Shown here one piece after another: positions 3,123 through 44,827 of a DNA stretch of 64,000 bases. How positions within the stretch are numbered: position 1 is the first letter of the stretch; each line of letters begins with the position of its first letter. The position numbers were made by a program, and so were the translations under genes. The notes below the pieces were generated by a model, which was given only the letters and a program-made list of their open reading frames with translations, was not told the origin of the DNA and did no database searches. Origin of the DNA: an uncultured Kiritimatiellota bacterium (GTDB lineage: Bacteria; Verrucomicrobiota; Kiritimatiellia; RFP12; UBA1067); contig CAKURH010000001.1 in NCBI GenBank assembly GCA_934675625.1, positions 474 to 64,473 of the forward strand, in the 5' to 3' direction.

Positions 3123-4208
3123 ATGCTCAACGCAAAGCTCATCAAGGAAATCGCGAAGAAGGCGGGGGCCGACAAGTGCGGCATCGCGCCGATTTCGCGC
3201 ATGAAGAACGCGCCGGACGAGATGAACCCGACGTTCCTCTTCCCCAACTGCAAGTCGATCGTCGGCTTCGTCTTCCGCATTCCGCGCGGCGTGCAGCGTG
3301 GCATCGAGGAGGGCACGCAGTTCTACCAGTACCCGTCGATGGCCTACGGCGGCATCAACGAGATTCTCGCGCCGGCGACGCTCTACCACGTCGGCCAGGC
3401 GATCGAGGACGCCGGCTACGAGGCGTTCGTCTACCGCAACACCGGCGCGCGCGGCTGCGTGTCGGACATGGACGGCTCGAAGGACGCGAAGCTCTCGCCG
3501 GAAGAGCAGATCGAAGTCAGCGAGAACGCGAAGGACTCGACGGCGCACCACCGCTCCGTCGACTTCACGCGCGCGACGCGCCCCGGCGAGAACGTGCCGC
3601 CCGACCTGCAGTTCCAGTTCCGCATCTGCGCGGTCGCGTGCGGCCTCGGCGAGATCGGCTGGTCGAAGATGCTGCTGACGCCGGAGTTCGGCCCGCTTCA
3701 GCGCGTCGCCTTCCTCTTCACCGACGGCGAATTCGACGCCTACGACGAGATCTACTCCGGCCCGCCCCTCTGCCGGCGGTGCGGCGCGTGCGCGCGCGAA
3801 TGTCCCGGCCACTGCATCCCGCCGATCCGGGGCGGCGCGAAATGCACGGCGTCGATCGGCGACTACACGATGGAGTGGGGCGACATCGACATGTGGAAGT
3901 GCTATGCGTTCTACACGCACGCGGGCCGCTACTACAACCCGTTCGTGCCGAAGGAGGTCTGGGACGAGAACCGCAACGGCGACCTCGACCTGCTGGAGGG
4001 GAAGACCGGCGCAAGCGAGCAGGAGATCATGAAGGTCTACAAGGCGCTCGCGAAATACTTCCCGACATGGGTCGGCTACAACATGGCGAAGTGCGGCGGC
4101 TGCATCCGCGCGTGCGTCGCGATGCTGGAGAAGCCGGGCGGGTGCCTGCACGGACGGTTCAGGAATCCGCTCCGGACACGGACGCAGCCCTGGAAGATGG
4201 AGAGGTAG
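3123..4208 (+). CDS. QueG/RdhA-superfamily-like iron-sulfur protein, paralog 1 (two Cys clusters including CxxCxxCxxxCP)
   Basis: The N-terminus MLNAKLIKEIAKKAGADKCGIAPI resembles QueG/RdhA N-termini. CRRCGACARECPGHC and a C-terminal CGGCIRAC are present. Homologous along its full length to the next two genes. Confidence 0.7.
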   Translation: MLNAKLIKEIAKKAGADKCGIAPISRMKNAPDEMNPTFLFPNCKSIVGFVFRIPRGVQRGIEEGTQFYQYPSMAYGGINEILAPATLYHVGQAIEDAGYEAFVYRNTGARGCVSDMDGSKDAKLSPEEQIEVSENAKDSTAHHRSVDFTRATRPGENVPPDLQFQFRICAVACGLGEIGWSKMLLTPEFGPLQRVAFLFTDGEFDAYDEIYSGPPLCRRCGACARECPGHCIPPIRGGAKCTASIGDYTMEWGDIDMWKCYAFYTHAGRYYNPFVPKEVWDENRNGDLDLLEGKTGASEQEIMKVYKALAKYFPTWVGYNMAKCGGCIRACVAMLEKPGGCLHGRFRNPLRTRTQPWKMER

Positions 4209-17519: not shown

Positions 17520-17666
17520 TTGGTGCAAGTTTCGGGAAAAGAGTTTGCGCGAAATAGACGGCAATTTTTGCGCGAAATAGACGGAAGAATTTGACAAGAA
17601 ACCCCGGTTTATGATAGACTTCACATTTGTCACGTGGAGGAATCGGGTGTGTCTATACGGTGTAGT

Positions 17667-17703: not shown

Positions 17704-20700
17704 ATGAATACAAAACTAATAGTTAAAGCGTTTCTCGGGGCGGTTTTCGCCTTGACCGGCGCGCGGCTCTCGGCGGAAACGCGGGTCGTCGACAAGCTCC
17801 ATGGGCCGTATTTTTCGGTTCAAGAAGCCGTGGATGCGGCATCTGAAGGCGATACGGTCTTCATCAAAAACGGCGTCCATGACGTGGGCGGCAGTCTCGA
17901 CGGCTTTAAGACGTCCATGTCGAACCGCGTCTACGTCACGAAGTCCCTCACGCTCGTCGGCGAGTCGAAGGAGGGCGCGATCATCAAGGGGGCCTACGCG
18001 ACGGAGGGCGTTGACGACAAGGGCCTCGGTTGCGGTGCGAACGCCGTGCGCTGTCTCGGCATCAATGCGGACAACGTCGTCGTCTCGAACCTGACGCTCA
18101 CGGGCGGCGCGACGCACAGCACGTCCGCCGGGAACGACAAGGAGGAGAACAACGGCGGCGGCGTCTACGTGGCGAACGGGAGGACGGGCGTCGTCCTTGT
18201 GGACTGCATCGTCTCCAACAACGTCGCGCGACGTGCGGGTGCGCTGCGCTACGCCAACGACGGTGCGGCCAATCACGGCAACTGCCTTCTCGTGCGCACG
18301 TGGGTTCACGCCAACAAGGCGCTAGACCGCGATCCCGCCGTGCGCGGATGTCTCGCGGCGTTCTGCCTCTTCACGGGGCATTACAGCAGCTCCAGCCTCT
18401 CCTATGCGGTGACGTTCGTGAACTGCACGTTCGCGGACGGCTTCGGGCGCAACCACAGCGGTAGCGCGGACGTGGCGGGCTACAACTGCCTCTTCGCCGA
18501 CACGTGGTTCAAGGACGAGAACGCGGTGGATCAGGCCCCGGCCGCCGCGCAGTGGCACAACTGCGCGTTCAACAAGCAGGACGCCACCACGACCTCGACG
18601 ACGAACGCGGCCTGCGTCTTCAATCCCGGCTATGACCTCTTCATGGCGCCGCCGCTCGCCGACTACCGCCTCCATGACGGCGCGATGACAGTCATCGGCA
18701 AGGGCGACGCTTCGTTCCTCGATCAGATTCCCGAAGCATATCGGAACATCGACTTCTATGGCCATGCGGTCGATGCCGCGTCCGTGAGTCTCGGCTGTGC
18801 GCAGGAAGTCGTCGCACCGACCGGCGGCACGATCACGTTTGCCGGGCAGAGCGGGATGTCGGACGCGAAACAGCCGCTCGGCAGCTATGGCGTGAAGACG
18901 GATTGCGGTCTCTATTCCTTCAACGGACGGCCCCTTGGAAACTCGAAAGACCTGGGCTACGTCCGCACGATGGAGGGCCGCACGGTCGTTACGGTCACGC
19001 ACGATCCGGCAGGCGCAACCTCAGAGGCGCGCCAAAATGGGCTTCACTCGTTTGCCGCGTCGGGATCGGACACGATGCGGCGCTTCGCGCAGATGGACGG
19101 CTCGTTTGCCCTGATGGCGCCGCCCGCCGGAAAGACGCTTACGCTTACGCCCACGTTCAACGATGCCGTCCTTACGGTCGATCGCGCCTCCACGTCCGAA
19201 AATCCGGATGGGACGGAAGACGCGCCCTATGCGAGCATTCAGGCGGCGATTGACAAAGTTGCTTCGGGAAAGTTCGCGACGATTCGCGTCAAGGCGGGCG
19301 TCTACGACAACGATGCGGGACGCTTGGCCAACAACCTCACGAACCGAATCTTCTCGAATGGCCGCAAGGTGAGGCTCGTCTCGGTGGACGGACGCGGCAA
19401 GGCCGTTCTGCTTGGTGCTCCCGATCCGAGCGTCGCACTCGATGCTTGGCCGTTTGGCTGCGGGGCGGGCGCGATGCGGTGCGCGGTCCTGCAGGACGGA
19501 TGCGCTATTCAGGGCTTTGCCTTGACGCGCGGCTACTCGAACACGAACGCCGACAACACGGGCCGTCGCGGCGGCGCACTCTGGCTGAACCAGGGCGCGG
19601 CGGCGCTCGACTGCGTCATCACGAACAACGTAGGCTGGCAGGGCGTCGCGATCAACGGAGCGGAATCCGGCCTGGTGCCGTCGGCGTTTGCCCTGCGGTG
19701 CTACATCGCCGACAATTATCCGATTACGGACGCCGCAAAGACAGGCGGCATTGGAGGCATCGTCCGCTCGACGACCGTTGGCTCGTCGATTCTCTACGAC
19801 AACCACGGCAGCAACTTCGGCAGCTATGAGCGGCAGTACACGTTCCAGACGACGCTTGCGGACGGTGCGGGCGCGGACAACGGCAACCTGCTCAATGGCG
19901 CCAATAACGTAAACGCCGTCATCCTCGCGAAGACTGGCAACCTCAGTAGTCCGACGCTCATCGGTGGCGTCTACCAGACGGCAAACGGCAAAATCAATGT
20001 GGAGGCCTCGTCCTCGTTCATGAACGCCGATCCCCTACTGGCCGATCCGGCGTACGGCGACTTTCGCTTGGGCGCGACCTCGCCCGCGCGAACGTGTGGC
20101 GTGACGACGCACGACGACTTTACGGATTCGACGAAGGCGGCCTACTACATGTTCGGCGCGACGGACTTCTTCGGCAACGTCTTCCGCCTGTTCGACGGCA
20201 AGCCCGTCTGCGGTGCGGTCGACCTCTATGCGCCGACGGTCATCTTCAACGGCGAGACGAAGGTGTTGGGCGTGTCGTCCGACCGCACGCTCACGTACAC
20301 GAGTACGGGCGACGATCCGCATCCGTGGCTTGGTCTGGAGGTGACAGAGAACGGCACCGTCACGACGAACGCGACGAAGAGCTTCACCTACACGGTGCCG
20401 GATTCGATAGACAACCCGTATGCTTTGACGATTCGCGACCTCTATGACTCGAACTGGTACGTGAGCGATGCGGACGGCGATGATGCGAATGCGGGTTCGT
20501 CCGCCGCGCCGAAGAAGACGCTCAAGGGTGCGCTTCAGTACGCCGTGTCGGGTGACACCGTGCACGTCGCGGCGGGCACGTATGCGACCGAGACGATGAC
20601 GCAGACGAAGGCGTTTGGAGCCATGAACAATGCAGCGTATGCGCTTCCGTCGCGCGCCGTCGTGCCGGCAGGTGTGTCCGTCATCGGTGCGGGCGCGGAC

Positions 20701-21897
20701 AAGACGTTTATCGTTGGTGCGGAAGATCCGTCGGCAGAGGCGGCAAACAAGGGTTGCGGGCCGAACGCTGTCCGTTGCGTCGCGCTTGCGAAGGGTGCGC
20801 GGCTTTCGGGCTTTACGCTGACAGGCGGACGCACAAACGCCGGAACCAAGAACGCCGAAGGAAGCTTCCCGAATGTCGATGATGACGAAGGCGGCGGCGT
20901 CTTGGCCGAATATGGCACGGAAGCCGATCTGGCGGTCGTCTCGGACTGCATCATCTCGAACTGCGTCGCACGGCGTGGCGGCGGTGGCTATAACGGGGTT
21001 TACAACCGTGTCCAGTTCTTGGAGAACAGCATTATCCAAAGTGGCAACGGTGCTGCTGCGCGCGGCAATGACGGCAAGTCCTGCATCCTTGCAAACTGCC
21101 TTATCGATCGCAACGAGGGCTGGGCGACGGTTTATTATCCGACGCTCGTCAACTGCACGTTTGGCGCGGACAACACGCACAGCGGCAACAGGGAGGGTCA
21201 GCAGGTTATTGCAGATGCGCCTGCCGTGACGAACTGCCTGATTTTGGGCACGAAGATTGCCACGGCGAGGACGGCGTTTTACGGTTGCGCATTCTCGTCC
21301 GCGACGGAAACGCTCCTGAAAAAGAACTCATCAGCGGGCGTGGATGCCAGCTGTCTTGTCTCGGACGACTTGTCGGTGGACGCGAATCTGGCGCCGGTCA
21401 TTGGCGCGAACGATGCGGTCGATGCGGCGGGGGCTGCTTTCTACGATGCGGCGAAGTGGGGCGATCTTGACGTCTACGGGAATCCGCGCGTGATGAACGG
21501 CAACCGGCTGGACGTCGGCGCGGTCGAGGCCGACTGGCGTCCGCTCTACACGAAGAAGATCGGCAAGCGGTTCGTCGTCACGGCGGTTGATCCGGCGGTG
21601 GAACTGGTCGACGACGGCGTGGCGATTCCGGCAGGGGCGTCGCTCGCGGCGACGGTTGGCCGTGCGGGCCGCGCGGATGGCGCCTACTTCCTGAAGGCGA
21701 CGGTTGCGGACGGCGCGACGTGTGCGGTCACGCGCGATGGCGTGGCGGCGGAGTCGCTGACGGCGGGCGAGAACGTGGTGCGCTATGTGACGGGCGAGAC
21801 GGGGCTTTCGGACTTCGTCTTCACGGCGGATGCGCTCGGCTCGACGGTGCTGTCGTCGCTCAAGGCCGACACCGGCATGCTGCTGATTCTGCGGTAA
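17704..21897 (+). CDS. Giant secreted right-handed parallel beta-helix (pectin-lyase-fold) protein made of three tandem homologous beta-helix modules
   Basis: Signal peptide MNTKLIVKAFLGAVFALTGARLSA. Three modules each begin with a …QAAID…G..V.VKAGVY-type cap and contain GCG.NAVRC…LTGG…GGGV blocks (about aa 60-200, 530-640, 905-1010). AT-rich 5' end. Confidence 0.7.
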   Translation: MNTKLIVKAFLGAVFALTGARLSAETRVVDKLHGPYFSVQEAVDAASEGDTVFIKNGVHDVGGSLDGFKTSMSNRVYVTKSLTLVGESKEGAIIKGAYATEGVDDKGLGCGANAVRCLGINADNVVVSNLTLTGGATHSTSAGNDKEENNGGGVYVANGRTGVVLVDCIVSNNVARRAGALRYANDGAANHGNCLLVRTWVHANKALDRDPAVRGCLAAFCLFTGHYSSSSLSYAVTFVNCTFADGFGRNHSGSADVAGYNCLFADTWFKDENAVDQAPAAAQWHNCAFNKQDATTTSTTNAACVFNPGYDLFMAPPLADYRLHDGAMTVIGKGDASFLDQIPEAYRNIDFYGHAVDAASVSLGCAQEVVAPTGGTITFAGQSGMSDAKQPLGSYGVKTDCGLYSFNGRPLGNSKDLGYVRTMEGRTVVTVTHDPAGATSEARQNGLHSFAASGSDTMRRFAQMDGSFALMAPPAGKTLTLTPTFNDAVLTVDRASTSENPDGTEDAPYASIQAAIDKVASGKFATIRVKAGVYDNDAGRLANNLTNRIFSNGRKVRLVSVDGRGKAVLLGAPDPSVALDAWPFGCGAGAMRCAVLQDGCAIQGFALTRGYSNTNADNTGRRGGALWLNQGAAALDCVITNNVGWQGVAINGAESGLVPSAFALRCYIADNYPITDAAKTGGIGGIVRSTTVGSSILYDNHGSNFGSYERQYTFQTTLADGAGADNGNLLNGANNVNAVILAKTGNLSSPTLIGGVYQTANGKINVEASSSFMNADPLLADPAYGDFRLGATSPARTCGVTTHDDFTDSTKAAYYMFGATDFFGNVFRLFDGKPVCGAVDLYAPTVIFNGETKVLGVSSDRTLTYTSTGDDPHPWLGLEVTENGTVTTNATKSFTYTVPDSIDNPYALTIRDLYDSNWYVSDADGDDANAGSSAAPKKTLKGALQYAVSGDTVHVAAGTYATETMTQTKAFGAMNNAAYALPSRAVVPAGVSVIGAGADKTFIVGAEDPSAEAANKGCGPNAVRCVALAKGARLSGFTLTGGRTNAGTKNAEGSFPNVDDDEGGGVLAEYGTEADLAVVSDCIISNCVARRGGGGYNGVYNRVQFLENSIIQSGNGAAARGNDGKSCILANCLIDRNEGWATVYYPTLVNCTFGADNTHSGNREGQQVIADAPAVTNCLILGTKIATARTAFYGCAFSSATETLLKKNSSAGVDASCLVSDDLSVDANLAPVIGANDAVDAAGAAFYDAAKWGDLDVYGNPRVMNGNRLDVGAVEADWRPLYTKKIGKRFVVTAVDPAVELVDDGVAIPAGASLAATVGRAGRADGAYFLKATVADGATCAVTRDGVAAESLTAGENVVRYVTGETGLSDFVFTADALGSTVLSSLKADTGMLLILR

Positions 21898-40550: not shown

Positions 40551-41858
40551 ATGACAAAGTTGACAAACGATTCGTTTCTGTCCGAACTCGCGGCGCGTCG
40601 GCGCTTCGGCATGAAGCCGGGGCTCGGGACGATTGCCGCGCTCTGCCGGGCGCTGGACGACCCGCAGCGGCGGTTCAAGGCGATCCATGTCGCCGGCACG
40701 AACGGCAAGGGCGCCGTCTGCGCGATGCTCGACGCGGCATTGTGCGCATCTGCCGCCGTCGGCGCGGCCGGTGCCGTCGGCCGCTACACGTCGCCGCACC
40801 TCGTGCGCCTCAACGAGCGATTCTGCCTCGGCGGCGCACCGGTGGCGGACGCGACGCTCGAACGCCTCGCCCGCACGGTGAACGCGGCGGCCTCCCGTCT
40901 GCCGTCCGCTGACGAGCTGACGTTCTTCGAGGCCCTGACGGCGGTCGCATTCCTGCTCTTCGCCGAGGCGCGGGTGTCCTGTGCCGTCCTTGAATGTGGT
41001 CTCGGCGGGCGTCTGGACGCGACGAACGTCTGCGATCCCGCGCTCTGCGTCATCACGCGGATCGGGCTTGACCACTGCGACTGGCTGGGCGACACGGTCG
41101 AGCGGATTGCGGCGGAAAAGGCGGGGATCGTCAAGCCCGGTGTGCCGGTCGTCCTCGCGGCGAATGCGCCGTCGGTCGTCGAAGTCGTTCGCGAGGCCGC
41201 TCGCGCGAAAGGGGCTCCGTTCTTCTACGCGCCGGATCTCGCTTCGGACGCAGAGATTCCGGCGGACTTTTCGCTGCTGGGCGCGTTTAACCGGGAGAAC
41301 GCGGTCACGGCCCTCGCCGCGCTGAAGGTTCTGCATCGCGTCGCGAACGGGGGGGCGGCGACCGAAGCCTTCCGTCTGCCGCCCCACGCGTTCGCGCACG
41401 TCGTCTGGCCCGGACGCTTTCAGCGCGTCGGCTCGTTTCTCGTCGACGGCGCGCACAATCCGCCGGCGGCGCGCGCACTCGCGGCGTCCCTCGCGCCGCT
41501 GTTGCCGGACGCGTCGCGGCGTCTCAATCTTGTGTTCGGGGCCTGCGGCGACAAGGATGTCGCGGACGTCCTGCGTATCCTCTCGCCGTTCGTGCGGCGC
41601 GCCTTTGCCGTGCGCACGAACAATCCGCGTTCGCTCGCGGCGGAGGATCTCGCGGCGCGCATGCGCACGCTCGGTCTTGCGGCGACGCCGTGCGCCACGC
41701 TGCGGGAGACGCTGTCGCGCTGTGCGCCGCGCACGGCGCCGAACGTCTCGACGCTCGTCTGCGGCTCGCTTTTCCTCGCGGGGGAGGCCCTTGTCGAACT
41801 GGGGGCCTATCCGTGGTCGACGACGCGTTTCGATCCGTCCGAGCGACTGCGCGCGTAA
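40551..41858 (+). CDS. folC: Folylpolyglutamate synthase / dihydrofolate synthase (Mur-ligase family)
   Basis: HVAGTNGKGAV P-loop. MurC/FolC order of domains. 435 aa. Confidence 0.8.
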   Translation: MTKLTNDSFLSELAARRRFGMKPGLGTIAALCRALDDPQRRFKAIHVAGTNGKGAVCAMLDAALCASAAVGAAGAVGRYTSPHLVRLNERFCLGGAPVADATLERLARTVNAAASRLPSADELTFFEALTAVAFLLFAEARVSCAVLECGLGGRLDATNVCDPALCVITRIGLDHCDWLGDTVERIAAEKAGIVKPGVPVVLAANAPSVVEVVREAARAKGAPFFYAPDLASDAEIPADFSLLGAFNRENAVTALAALKVLHRVANGGAATEAFRLPPHAFAHVVWPGRFQRVGSFLVDGAHNPPAARALAASLAPLLPDASRRLNLVFGACGDKDVADVLRILSPFVRRAFAVRTNNPRSLAAEDLAARMRTLGLAATPCATLRETLSRCAPRTAPNVSTLVCGSLFLAGEALVELGAYPWSTTRFDPSERLRA

Positions 41859-42068
41859 TGCGTTGAGGCTTCGCGGCGGGGCTCTTTGGGCTTCCGCGCG
41901 CGGACGACGGCCGCCGCGCGCCGCGCCGCGACAGGTGTTAGCTTCTCTGATGCAAAAGTGGCCTGACGCAAAAAAGTGGCTGGCCAGTTTGGATTTTCGG
42001 ACGGATTTTTGCTATGCTACGAACCGTAGACGCGAACGTCTCGCGTAAACCCAACCGAGGAACAGGCC

Positions 42069-42548
42069 ATGACAAAGAGAAAAGCACGTAATGAAAAGCC
42101 GCAGGGGCGGCTAGTCGAGACAGGCGTCCGCCCGGCTGGCGTGGCTCTGCTGTCGTTGGCGTGCGCAGGTCTGCTCTCCGGCTTCGCGACAGGGGCTGAC
42201 CTCTCCCCTAGGGGGGGGGCGGCAGCGACGGCGGGCTCACGGCGGGGCGCGACGCGCGCACGTGGGGCAAGCCCGATCCGCGCCTCTTCGACGTCGTCCT
42301 GCCCGACTTCTTCGAGGTGGACTTCGTCCGCGTCTACGACGAGGGGCCGGACGGAACGGAAAATGAGAATTCTGTGCGGAACTAATCAAAAGGAGATCCA
42401 GACATGCAACTCACCACAATCTTGGCGGCTTCGGCCTTGCAGTTCGCGACCGGCATCACGACTGACCGTCCGGCGGGCGTCTTCATCGAGGGCGTCGGCG
42501 CGGCGTTCAGGACCGAGGGCGCGGCGGCGTTCACGCGCTGGACGGTGA
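42069..42548 (+). pseudogene. Small signal-peptide-bearing ORF interrupted by a G9 tract; in the sequenced state it runs into an Arg/Ser-rich out-of-frame tail. With G10 it would encode a 105-aa protein ending at 42385.
   Basis: MTKRKARNEK…VALLSLACAGLLSGFATGADLSPRGG-(G9). One extra G gives …KPDPRLFDVVLPDFFEVDFVRVYDEGPDGTENENSVRN*, which has strong GC3 bias and a stop just before the RBS of the next gene. Confidence 0.35.
42211..42219. repeat. Homopolymeric G9 tract inside the small ORF; candidate phase-variation or frameshift site
   Basis: ctctccccta-GGGGGGGGG-cggcagc. Confidence 0.55.
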
Positions 42549-44827
42549 CGGACTTCTTCGAGACGGAAGTCGCGTCCGGCGCGTGGCCGACGAACGGCGT
42601 TTCGCTCGTCCTGCCCGCGCTGGGGCCCGGCTACTACGAGCTGGACGCCGAAGGGGCGGACGGTGTGCGCGGTCACTTCGCGTTCACGGTGGTGCGCGAT
42701 CCGGCGACGCGACGACCGCCGGCCCCGGACTCGCCCTACGCGATGATGGCGGGCGGGAGCGCCTGGCCGAAGGGCGACCCGGAGAAGACGAACGCCGACC
42801 TCATGCGTCTCGCGGGGCAGGCCTCCGTGCGCAAGATCTACCGCTGGGAGCACATTGAGAAGGAGCCGGGCAAGTTCGAGCTTGTGCCGCACCGCGACTT
42901 CACGCAGACCTATGCCGCCGCCGGCGTCAAGGTCTGCGGCATGATCCACCGTCCGCCGAAATGGGCGGACACGGCCGTGGTCGTGCCGCGCAACCTGCGG
43001 CAGATGTACGCGTTCTGCCGCCGCCTTGAGCGCGAGTTGGGCGGCGCGATGTGCGCGTGGGAGATCTACAACGAGCAGGACCTTCCGCAGTCCGTGGGCG
43101 ACGGCTGCTGGAACTACACGGCGGCGCAAAAGGCGTCCTATCTCGGCTTCAAGTCGAAGAACGCCGAGCGGATCGTCTTCGGCGGGGCTCTCTGCCTCGA
43201 CGTGGGGCTCGGCTATGACAGCCTCTGGCTCGACAACGACGGCGCGTACTATTCGGACGGCCTCAACTACCACACCTACTTTCCGCTCGGCGCGAACGAC
43301 AAGTGGTTTGGCGAATGGCGTGACCTGCTTGCGAAGTACGGCATCATGAACTGGGCGACGTGGGTGACGGAAGACTGCACGAACCAGGAGGGGGACGCGC
43401 TCGTGGAGCGTCCCGGCACGCCGAACCGCGCGCACACGAAGGACCAGGAGCGTCTGCTGGCCGAGTTCTACGCGAAGGACCAGGTCTTCAAGCAGATGAA
43501 CGGCGTCAGCCGCTCGTACTTCTTCATCCTCGCGGCCTACAACGAGCGCGAGGGCCGCAAGGACTGGGGCATCTACCGCCGCGACGGGACGCTGAAGCCG
43601 TGTTATGCGGCGGCCGCGACGCTGACGGGCGAACTGGAGGGCGCGACGCTGCTGGGCGAGGTCGCGTTGCCGGACGCGCGGCTCAAGGGCTTTCTCTATG
43701 CCCAGCCGGACGGCCGGCGCACGCTCGTCTACTGGACGGTGACGGACTTTGAGCGCCAGGTCGAACGCGACAGGGCCTTTCAGGACGCGCCGCTGCAGGA
43801 TGTCGCGTTTGCGCTGCCTTTGCCGAAAGGCGACTACCGCGCGGTGCGGCTGACGGGCGACCGTCGCACCGTCTCCGTCACGGGAACGTCCGCCGCGCTT
43901 GTCGCGACGCGCTATCCGGCGTATCTGACGGGCCGCTTCGACCTGCCGGTCGTGCGCCGCGCCGTGCCGATGGGCAGGCTCGTCGCGCCGCGTCCGCCGG
44001 CGGGGACGGACCTCACGCTGATCGTGCGGGCGGACGGCGAGAGGGACGCGACGCGCATCGGTTCGAGCGGTCGGCGGCTGGACTTGCTGACGGAGACGCC
44101 GAACCTGACGATACAGGTCTGGAACCTCTCCCGTGACCGCAAGCGCGGGCGGCTCGTCTGGGACGGCGCGAAGCTGGAGGGCGTGCCGGAGGCGTTCGAC
44201 CTGCCGCCGGCGGGCTGTGCCGAGTTCACCGTGCGGCTCTCGCTTCTCGACCTGAAGTCAGGACAAGGGCGGCTCAACCTGCGGTGCGTGGCAGACAGCG
44301 GAAAATCGACGGCGTGCGTGATTCCGCTCTTCTCGGAATGGGCCTTTGCCCATGCCCGTACGCTGGAACCGTTCCTGCGGGCGAACGATCCGAAGGAATG
44401 GTACATGAACGGCAACGCCTCGAAGATGTCGGTGACGTGGGACGAGCGGGAGCAGGCGATCTGCCTCGCGGCGGACTGGACGGGCGACAAGGTGGACGGC
44501 AAGTGGTTCTTTCCCGGCATCAAGATGAACGGGCCGGAAGGGCCCGTGTCGTCCGTCTGCGGCCTCGTGTTCGAGACGAAGAGCGAGCAGGACAAGGTGG
44601 AGAACGACTGGAAGACGTCGCTCGTGCAGGTGATGGGCGGCAAGATCGGCGGCTACGCGAACTGGCTGCAGGTGCCGCCTCCGTCCAGCGTGTGGGAGTC
44701 GCGGCAGGTCAACCTCGTTCATGATCCGGACATCCGCGAAGGGGCGACGAGCCTCCAGTACGGCGGCATGCCGGGCGCGGGCAACAAGGTGCGGATCTGG
44801 ATCCGCAACATCCGTCTTGTGCGTTGA
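42404..44827 (+). CDS. Clan GH-A (GH5-like) glycoside hydrolase with extra C-terminal beta-sandwich domains (807 aa)
   Basis: RBS aaaaggagatccagacATG. …VRKIYRWEHIEKEPGKFEL… and CAWEIYNEQD (the NEP acid/base motif). Confidence 0.65.
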   Translation: MQLTTILAASALQFATGITTDRPAGVFIEGVGAAFRTEGAAAFTRWTVTDFFETEVASGAWPTNGVSLVLPALGPGYYELDAEGADGVRGHFAFTVVRDPATRRPPAPDSPYAMMAGGSAWPKGDPEKTNADLMRLAGQASVRKIYRWEHIEKEPGKFELVPHRDFTQTYAAAGVKVCGMIHRPPKWADTAVVVPRNLRQMYAFCRRLERELGGAMCAWEIYNEQDLPQSVGDGCWNYTAAQKASYLGFKSKNAERIVFGGALCLDVGLGYDSLWLDNDGAYYSDGLNYHTYFPLGANDKWFGEWRDLLAKYGIMNWATWVTEDCTNQEGDALVERPGTPNRAHTKDQERLLAEFYAKDQVFKQMNGVSRSYFFILAAYNEREGRKDWGIYRRDGTLKPCYAAAATLTGELEGATLLGEVALPDARLKGFLYAQPDGRRTLVYWTVTDFERQVERDRAFQDAPLQDVAFALPLPKGDYRAVRLTGDRRTVSVTGTSAALVATRYPAYLTGRFDLPVVRRAVPMGRLVAPRPPAGTDLTLIVRADGERDATRIGSSGRRLDLLTETPNLTIQVWNLSRDRKRGRLVWDGAKLEGVPEAFDLPPAGCAEFTVRLSLLDLKSGQGRLNLRCVADSGKSTACVIPLFSEWAFAHARTLEPFLRANDPKEWYMNGNASKMSVTWDEREQAICLAADWTGDKVDGKWFFPGIKMNGPEGPVSSVCGLVFETKSEQDKVENDWKTSLVQVMGGKIGGYANWLQVPPPSSVWESRQVNLVHDPDIREGATSLQYGGMPGAGNKVRIWIRNIRLVR

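Follow-up and report, generated by a model that had tools for sequence, protein, structure and literature searches.

What does a run of nine guanines do inside a short open reading frame (ORF) that runs on into the next gene? We asked this of a 64,000-nt stretch of DNA (the window) from an uncultured Kiritimatiellota bacterium. The original prediction, made from the letters alone, had seen here either the OFF state of a phase-variable small secreted protein or a homopolymer sequencing error. We therefore characterized the tract and its reading frames, and compared them with related contigs (designated by L numbers) and proteins (P numbers).

The nine-G tract separates two coding stretches that are out of register

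In the window sequence, a run of exactly nine G occupies 42211-42219, between CCCCTA on its 5' side and CGGCAGC on its 3' side, and this G9 tract lies, as had been noticed, inside a small ORF:

42069..42548, plus strand: mechanical ORF of the G9 allele, 159 aa, opening with the ATG at 42069 and ending at 42548

The G9 tract is not a chance run. While G/C runs of four are common in the window (256 of them), there are 43 runs of five, three of six and one of seven, and the only runs longer than 7 nt are G9 and one C13. A first-order Markov model predicts approximately 0.55 runs of at least nine G in the window, and the empirical decay of the run counts, when extrapolated, suggests that the expected number is well under 0.1. 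Contingency genes carry a homopolymer of about eight or more bases in their 5' coding region or promoter, of a length unusual for the genome; the G9 tract, which is located directly after codons for a signal peptide, is of this kind.

Inserting one G into the tract in silico joins the frame opened at ATG 42069 to a second frame with a strong preference for G/C in third codon positions, just as the original prediction had it. The resulting 105-aa product ends at a stop codon at 42383-42385, 18 nt before the ATG (42404) of the next gene, which encodes an 807-aa protein. The contrast in codon bias between the two frames is also confirmed when G+C content is computed for each codon position: 3' of the tract, GC1/2/3 is 0.71/0.44/0.87 in the frame restored by the extra G, vs. 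0.44/0.89/0.70 in the G9 frame. The value of 0.87 is comparable to the GC3 of 0.90 at the beginning of the 807-aa gene (its first 145 nt). Among the three frames 5' of the tract, none is distinct by GC3 (range 0.59-0.68). The 159-aa ORF overlaps the 807-aa gene by 145 nt, and its Arg/Ser-rich tail, previously noted to run into that gene, is an out-of-frame reading of the relic described below and of this overlap. This ORF has no gene call in L001 or L002, and its exact sequence is absent from a collection of 15 billion proteins.

The two stretches are the ends of a gene for a secreted enzyme

A homologue search with the 105-aa product of the G10 frame, which the original prediction had proposed, returned no full-length match but two kinds of partial match. 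The N-terminal half matches ORFs of 65-66 aa that have in common MTKRK...LLSGFATGADLSPRGGG and then continue differently, while the C-terminal half matches the ends of longer proteins (...GYRKVGSDGGLTAGR..WGKPDPRLF...LPDFFEVDFVRVYDE), one of which carries a Pfam GH16 domain. Both halves are found in a single intact protein of 769 aa, P0143. When P0143 was compared by tblastn to the whole 64-kb window, the only matches were residues 1-50 (at 42069-42218, with 94% identity) and residues 722-769 (at 42239-42382), lying side by side. The region can thus be described by the following features:

42057..42062, plus strand: Shine-Dalgarno (SD)-like GAGGAA, 6 nt 5' of ATG 42069, read from the sequence; L010 has this element too, before the start codon of its intact 769-aa gene
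42069..42210, plus strand: retained 5' coding end of the deleted gene, 47 codons, encoding a Sec-type signal peptide (MTKRKARNEKPQGRLVETGVRP / AGVALLSLACAGLLSGFA / TGADLSP), from tblastn with P0143
42211..42219, plus strand: G9 homopolymer, remnant of the poly-G tract of the intact gene and left edge of the deletion; the same site bears a tract in L001-L005, L010, and L011
42221..42385, plus strand: retained 3' end of the deleted gene, last 54 codons and stop (GSDGGLTAGRDARTWGKPDPRLFDVVLPDFFEVDFVRVYDEGPDGTENENSVRN, then the stop codon), encoding the C-terminal strands of a GH16-like domain, from homology
42390..42395, plus strand: AAGGAG ribosome-binding site (RBS) of the 807-aa gene, read from the sequence
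42404..44827, plus strand: 807-aa gene, second gene of the original unit, 11-18 nt after the intact enzyme gene in L003, L007, L009, and L010

The retained 5' end differs from L010 by four synonymous and three non-synonymous codons, and the signal-peptide core LLSG[FL]A is common to the relic and to tract-free orthologues. The retained 3' end, which is one base out of frame with ATG 42069, is homologous to the last 54 codons of the intact gene (GSDGG...) in L003, L007, and L010, and to the C termini of the GH16 (PF00722) proteins P0004-P0009; it differs from L007 by 10 synonymous and four non-synonymous changes. The window lacks 1,993 nt relative to L010; the gap opens after the ninth G and closes at CGG(C/T)AGCGACGG, which places the junction at 42219|42220. 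Inspection of this junction revealed no clear microhomology.

We conclude that 42069-42385 is very probably a pseudogene relic, in which the two ends of a gene for a secreted enzyme of ~769 aa have been joined by a deletion of ~1,993 nt (about 2 kb). An intact homologue occupies the syntenic position in close relatives, in the order folC, 769-aa gene, 807-aa gene in L010 and similarly in L003 and L011, and tblastn with P0143 reveals that only fragments are left in the window, with essential parts missing. The deletion architecture and the homology are directly observed, as are the tract lengths that differ between samples (see below). In the scenario that we favor, the ancestor would have carried a gene for the ~769-aa secreted enzyme between folC and the 807-aa gene, and a single deletion, extending from inside the poly-G tract to codon ~715 (1,993 nt or so in comparison with L010), would have spared the promoter region with the RBS, 47 codons for the signal peptide, nine G and 54 codons at the 3' end. 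The frame with high GC3 that stops shortly before the 807-aa gene would then simply be the natural 3' end of the lost gene.

The direction of the change is indicated by the more distant orthologues L007 and L009, which are full length before the 807-aa gene, and by the 54 retained codons, which encode the conserved terminus of a domain and presuppose the remainder of that domain; full length is therefore the ancestral state. For these reasons, we rejected the opposite possibility, that relatives gained an insertion rather than the window suffering a loss. The deletion looks recent, since the bias of 10 synonymous to four non-synonymous differences from L007 must largely pre-date it, and a recent date would account for the 3' frame still being coding-like. 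No difference in the remnant is seen among the four deletion-allele contigs examined. The two parts of the relic have different nearest alleles, its 3' part showing 90-91% nucleotide identity to L007 and L009 vs. 84% to L010, and its 5' part 97% to L010. The exact parental allele therefore lies outside the sampled set and the locus is mosaic, a pattern that suggests recombination between alleles.

Intact relatives have tracts of different lengths

The length of the tract differs between samples, with G9 in the window, L001 and L002, G8 in L004, G13 in L010, G15 in L003 and L011, and G11 plus an A in L005, all of these lengths being taken from short-read metagenome consensus assemblies, in which long homopolymers are error-prone. 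In L003, L005, L010, and L011, the upstream region, the signal-peptide codons and the position of the tract are as in the window, but the tract is followed by a gene of ~2.1 kb, the frame of which is open back to the tract; 11 nt separate its end (...DFFEVDFVRVYDE...) from the downstream orthologue of the 807-aa gene. P0143, which was identified via cluster look-up and is encoded on contig L010 (G13), has the signal peptide, four Gly and the whole body of the protein in one frame. In L003 (G15) and L005 (G11+A), the intact gene is out of frame with the signal-peptide start, and translation from G15 and G11+A ends after 65-66 residues; L011 (G15) is out of frame as well and has a further internal deletion (577-aa call). 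Of the four intact tract-bearing alleles found, three are hence OFF, all in the same phase.

The rest of the allelic series comprises intact in-frame genes without a tract but with a related signal peptide, in L007 (733 aa, from a metagenome-assembled genome [MAG] labelled Kiritimatiellaeota) and L009 (729 aa); forms that consist of only a signal peptide and a GH16-like domain, in L006 ("uncultured Lentisphaerae bacterium RUG632") and the proteins P0134 and P0146; and the deletion relic itself, in the window, L001 and L002 (G9) and in L004 (G8; a short contig). The related MAGs, labelled Lentisphaerae or Kiritimatiellaeota, belong to an uncultured gut/rumen lineage. Identity between L010 and the window is 99.3% over the 807-aa gene and 96.8% over folC, so that intact and deleted forms coexist in one species. 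Scanning JGI metagenome contigs for the tract with its left flank gave 0 matches.

Two further observations concern the structure of this slot. When L004 1-45 is compared with window positions ~42026-42131, the first ~38 nt of L004 diverge from all other alleles 5' of window position ~42128, and the RBS and ATG-42069 region is missing. This could be due to additional decay, to the relic having been rearranged a second time, or to a chimeric contig end. More generally, the slot 5' of the 807-aa gene is structurally very variable in close relatives (L006, 1-1650; L009, 3048-5000; L011, 3381-5114), with differing signal peptides, an (α/α)6-like domain that is present or absent, and either folC or a gene for an α-L-fucosidase as upstream neighbor.

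As in contingency genes, the length of the tract differs between related populations and shifts the frame, G8 and G9 being found in the deletion allele and G11+A, G13, and G15 in the intact allele, as read from short-read assemblies. In the intact strains, the tract lies in a linker that follows the predicted cleavage region (..LLSGFA|TGA..) and precedes the conserved part of the mature protein, where a variable number of glycines should be harmless. G13 keeps the frame open, as G10 or G16 would, while G15 and G11+A end it after 65-66 residues. In these intact-gene relatives, the tract is probably an ON/OFF switch operating by slipped-strand mispairing, and we infer that reversible slippage is the source of the differences in length; the shared OFF phase of three of the four intact tract-bearing alleles would fit slippage. 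At least one tract length should yield a complete, plausible product, and this is the case in L010, in which G13 gives 769 aa, but in the window, the G10 product is a stub. The tract in the window is thus a fossil contingency tract with nothing useful left to control, since a tenth G would do no more than fuse a signal peptide to a catalytically dead fragment of 54 residues. Consequently, the idea of a phase-variable OFF allele holds insofar as tract length varies between samples and the two coding stretches are one base out of register, but not for the window, in which the controlled gene has been deleted.

Alternative readings of the locus

The small secreted protein of the original prediction, a phase-variable product of 105 aa that is OFF at G9 and ON at G10, is highly unlikely, even though the G10 ORF is uninterrupted, with an RBS, a signal peptide and a stop codon just before the next gene, and assemblies of the same allele differ by one G (G9 vs. 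G8). Its two halves are residues 1-50 and 722-769 of the 769-aa enzyme, its 54-residue tail is only the end of a β-jelly-roll domain, lacking the ExDxxE motif, and the G10 product matches no Pfam or NCBIfam family. The exact products of G7, G8, G10, G11, and G12 are all absent from the 15-billion-protein collection; for G7 and G10 this counts against a small protein, the neighboring gene having been read in 23 contigs and indexed in 45 blocks. Since ORFs of 65-89 aa at the same site are called in other alleles, an existing G10 ORF would probably not have escaped gene calling. Nor does a sequencing or assembly error concealing a true G10 and an intact small ORF fare better. Homopolymers are error-prone, and the assemblies of other samples break at the C13 run of the window, but L001 (ERZ15610049) and L002 (Hadza, ERZ4560629), two other assemblies from different samples, both read G9, so that the irreproducible length typical of an artefact is not seen. 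Moreover, L004 reads G8, not G10, and even a true G10 would produce a deletion stub. An error is a very improbable explanation.

The relic might instead have been co-opted as a phase-variable leader ORF, in which the length of the tract would set the point of termination and thereby switch or tune translation of the 807-aa gene. Retention of the RBS, the ATG and the promoter-like block speaks for this, as does the spacing of 11-18 nt between the enzyme and 807-aa genes in intact alleles, with a stop codon overlapping the SD in L010, which suggests translational coupling. As read from the sequence, G9 would take translation to 42548, across the RBS and start of the 807-aa gene, whereas G10 or G7 would end it 18 nt before the ATG, and G8 or G11 at 42364-42366, 38 nt before. 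A contingency tract would in that case have been re-purposed after loss of the gene that it originally controlled. However, folding of the leader RNA gives no structure beyond that of shuffled sequences (z = 0.09), the 807-aa gene has its own strong AAGGAG, and L004 appears to lack the ATG-42069 region (its contig end may be chimeric), and we regard a leader function as very unlikely. It could also be argued that the out-of-frame alleles are not truly OFF, and that slippage during transcription or programmed +1/-2 frameshifting at the G run allows them to be decoded, G15, G11+A and the relic G9 all being in the same register, which needs +1. This is extremely unlikely, as four to five alleles are too few to set against chance or shared descent, an in-frame G13 allele exists, and slippage is best documented on A/T runs. 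With the deletion relic as the preferred reading, the region should be annotated as a deletion pseudogene; inserting a G to obtain a 105-aa gene would be a mistaken correction. The relic explains why a short frame with perfect codon bias is found in an apparent intergenic gap.

The lost enzyme has a GH16-like domain and a second, unassigned domain

The intact enzyme consists of a signal peptide, a short Gly linker encoded by the poly-G tract, an (α/α)6-like domain of ~430 aa and a C-terminal GH16-like domain. The 54 residues retained in the window align with the C-terminal strands of GH16 (...LPDFFEVD[FY]VRVY...), and the intact relatives have the ExDxxE motif, as ETDVME, ~125 residues upstream of the retained fragment. 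However, the intact relatives are barely at the Pfam threshold, scoring 22.0-26.6 bits against PF00722, 22.9 bits among them, for a cut-off of 22, and in departure from GH16, their domain is fused to the (α/α)6-like domain. Their sequence matches in the Protein Data Bank (PDB), to GH16 glucanases and a porphyranase, are weak. As for the window, which has only the last ~54 residues of this domain and none of its catalytic residues, the fragment has no Pfam match and no ExDxxE, and thus neither the jelly-roll catalytic domain nor the motif that define GH16.

The N-terminal domain of ~430 residues has no Pfam match, and its profile gave only chance-level matches against PDB sequences. A confident AlphaFold model of this domain is a helical barrel (pLDDT of 90.4, pTM of 0.89), for which a fold search returned weak best matches, with TM scores of 0.45-0.50, to (α/α)6 enzymes of GH9, GH76, and GH116. 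The domain is possibly a new carbohydrate-active family. The family (P0029, P0048-P0129) is widespread in MAGs of Kiritimatiellae and Lentisphaerae, in which the domain occurs alone or fused to GH16, GH5 (PF00150), GH42 (PF02449) or pectate-lyase-like domains, in permuted order in some.

A conserved promoter-like block precedes the relic

Upstream of the relic, one block of sequence is conserved in relatives:

41974..42021, plus strand: conserved block AAGTGGCTGGCCAGTTTGGATTTTCGGACGGATTTTTGCTATGCTACG, kept in the window, L010, L005, and L007, with diverging flanks

By eye, this block exhibits a -35-like TTGGAT (41989-41994) and a -10-like TATGCT (42013-42018; TATACT in relatives) separated by an 18-nt spacer, and it includes a palindrome, CTGGCCAG. 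Its probable role is that of a promoter or operator, originally for the two-gene unit and at present for the 807-aa gene. A scan of 41800-42500 with a sigma-70 consensus found no promoter by its criteria. The same interval contains one terminator-like hairpin, on the minus strand (42097-42112), which is no more than in shuffled sequences. The ~48-nt block (AAGTGGCTGGCCAGTTTGGATTTTCGGA..GATTTTCGCTATACTAC) is kept even in L007 (~3700-3750), a species with 89% identity, and lies at ~1670-1720 in L010, while the surrounding intergenic DNA is not kept.

The 807-aa protein, which had been called a glycoside hydrolase in the original prediction, has no Pfam or NCBIfam match, and its only PDB sequence match, to the uncharacterised 5jvk_A, is weak (E = 1.8e-6). 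In the assembly collection, the identical sequence is indexed in 45 blocks, Hadza gut samples among them. Of the contigs with an identical 807-aa protein, 23 were read, 21 of which were collapsed with two displayed contigs; in these two, the interval from folC to the 807-aa gene has no gene call. Neighboring genes match FGE-sulfatase-type, GH106, and GH2 domains and, weakly, GH95/GH65, a setting that fits a glycan-degradation locus as judged from these domain matches. Within folC, a run of seven G (41349-41355) is in frame, is also G7 in L001 and L002, and shows no sign of variation.

Relation to known contingency loci and pseudogenes

Homopolymeric tracts (simple sequence repeats) define contingency loci such as the poly-G genes of Campylobacter, Neisseria, and Helicobacter. 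The locus studied here resembles them in having poly-G early in a gene for a secreted or surface product, a length that varies between populations, and one length (G13) that gives the full ORF while the others truncate it. It differs in that the gene controlled by the tract of the window has been deleted, in that the variation in length is between-sample consensus variation only, and in that the host is an uncultured gut/rumen bacterium. With internal-deletion pseudogenes, it shares an intact syntenic orthologue in sister strains, the retention of the two ends, the disrupted frame and a codon-bias fossil. Unlike them, it has one breakpoint at a hypermutable homopolymer and has kept a promoter-like block, an RBS and a start codon before an intact downstream gene. 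As a deletion pseudogene, the feature in the window is of an ordinary kind; what is unusual is the position of its breakpoint at a hypermutable tract.

The allelic series (G13, G15, G11+A, tract-free, GH16-only and relic) points to contingency switching, by a homopolymer, of a secreted carbohydrate-active enzyme. A full-text literature search found no paper mentioning both phase variation and any term beginning with Kiritimatiell. The gut commensal Bifidobacterium breve has an intragenic G-tract switch in its sortase-dependent pilus genes (PMC9187656), which is the closest commensal precedent that we found.

A second long tract lies upstream of the gene for a different secreted protein

The longest run in the window, C13 (17667-17679), lies 25 nt 5' of the ATG of a 1397-aa gene (17704-21897), the product of which has a signal peptide and a weak match to a Pel9A-like β-helix. 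This run, located in the 5' leader, is a candidate second contingency tract. Together with the hot-spot locus described above, it makes testable the notion that gut glycan degraders vary their repertoire of exo-enzymes stochastically. The assemblies of two other samples break at C13, L012 starting with C10 and L013 ending 7 nt before the tract. The tract is downstream of a TTGACA-N18-TAGACT pair (17591-17620, identified by eye) and of a 15-nt direct repeat, GCGCGAAATAGACGG, present in two copies (17547-17561 and 17571-17585).
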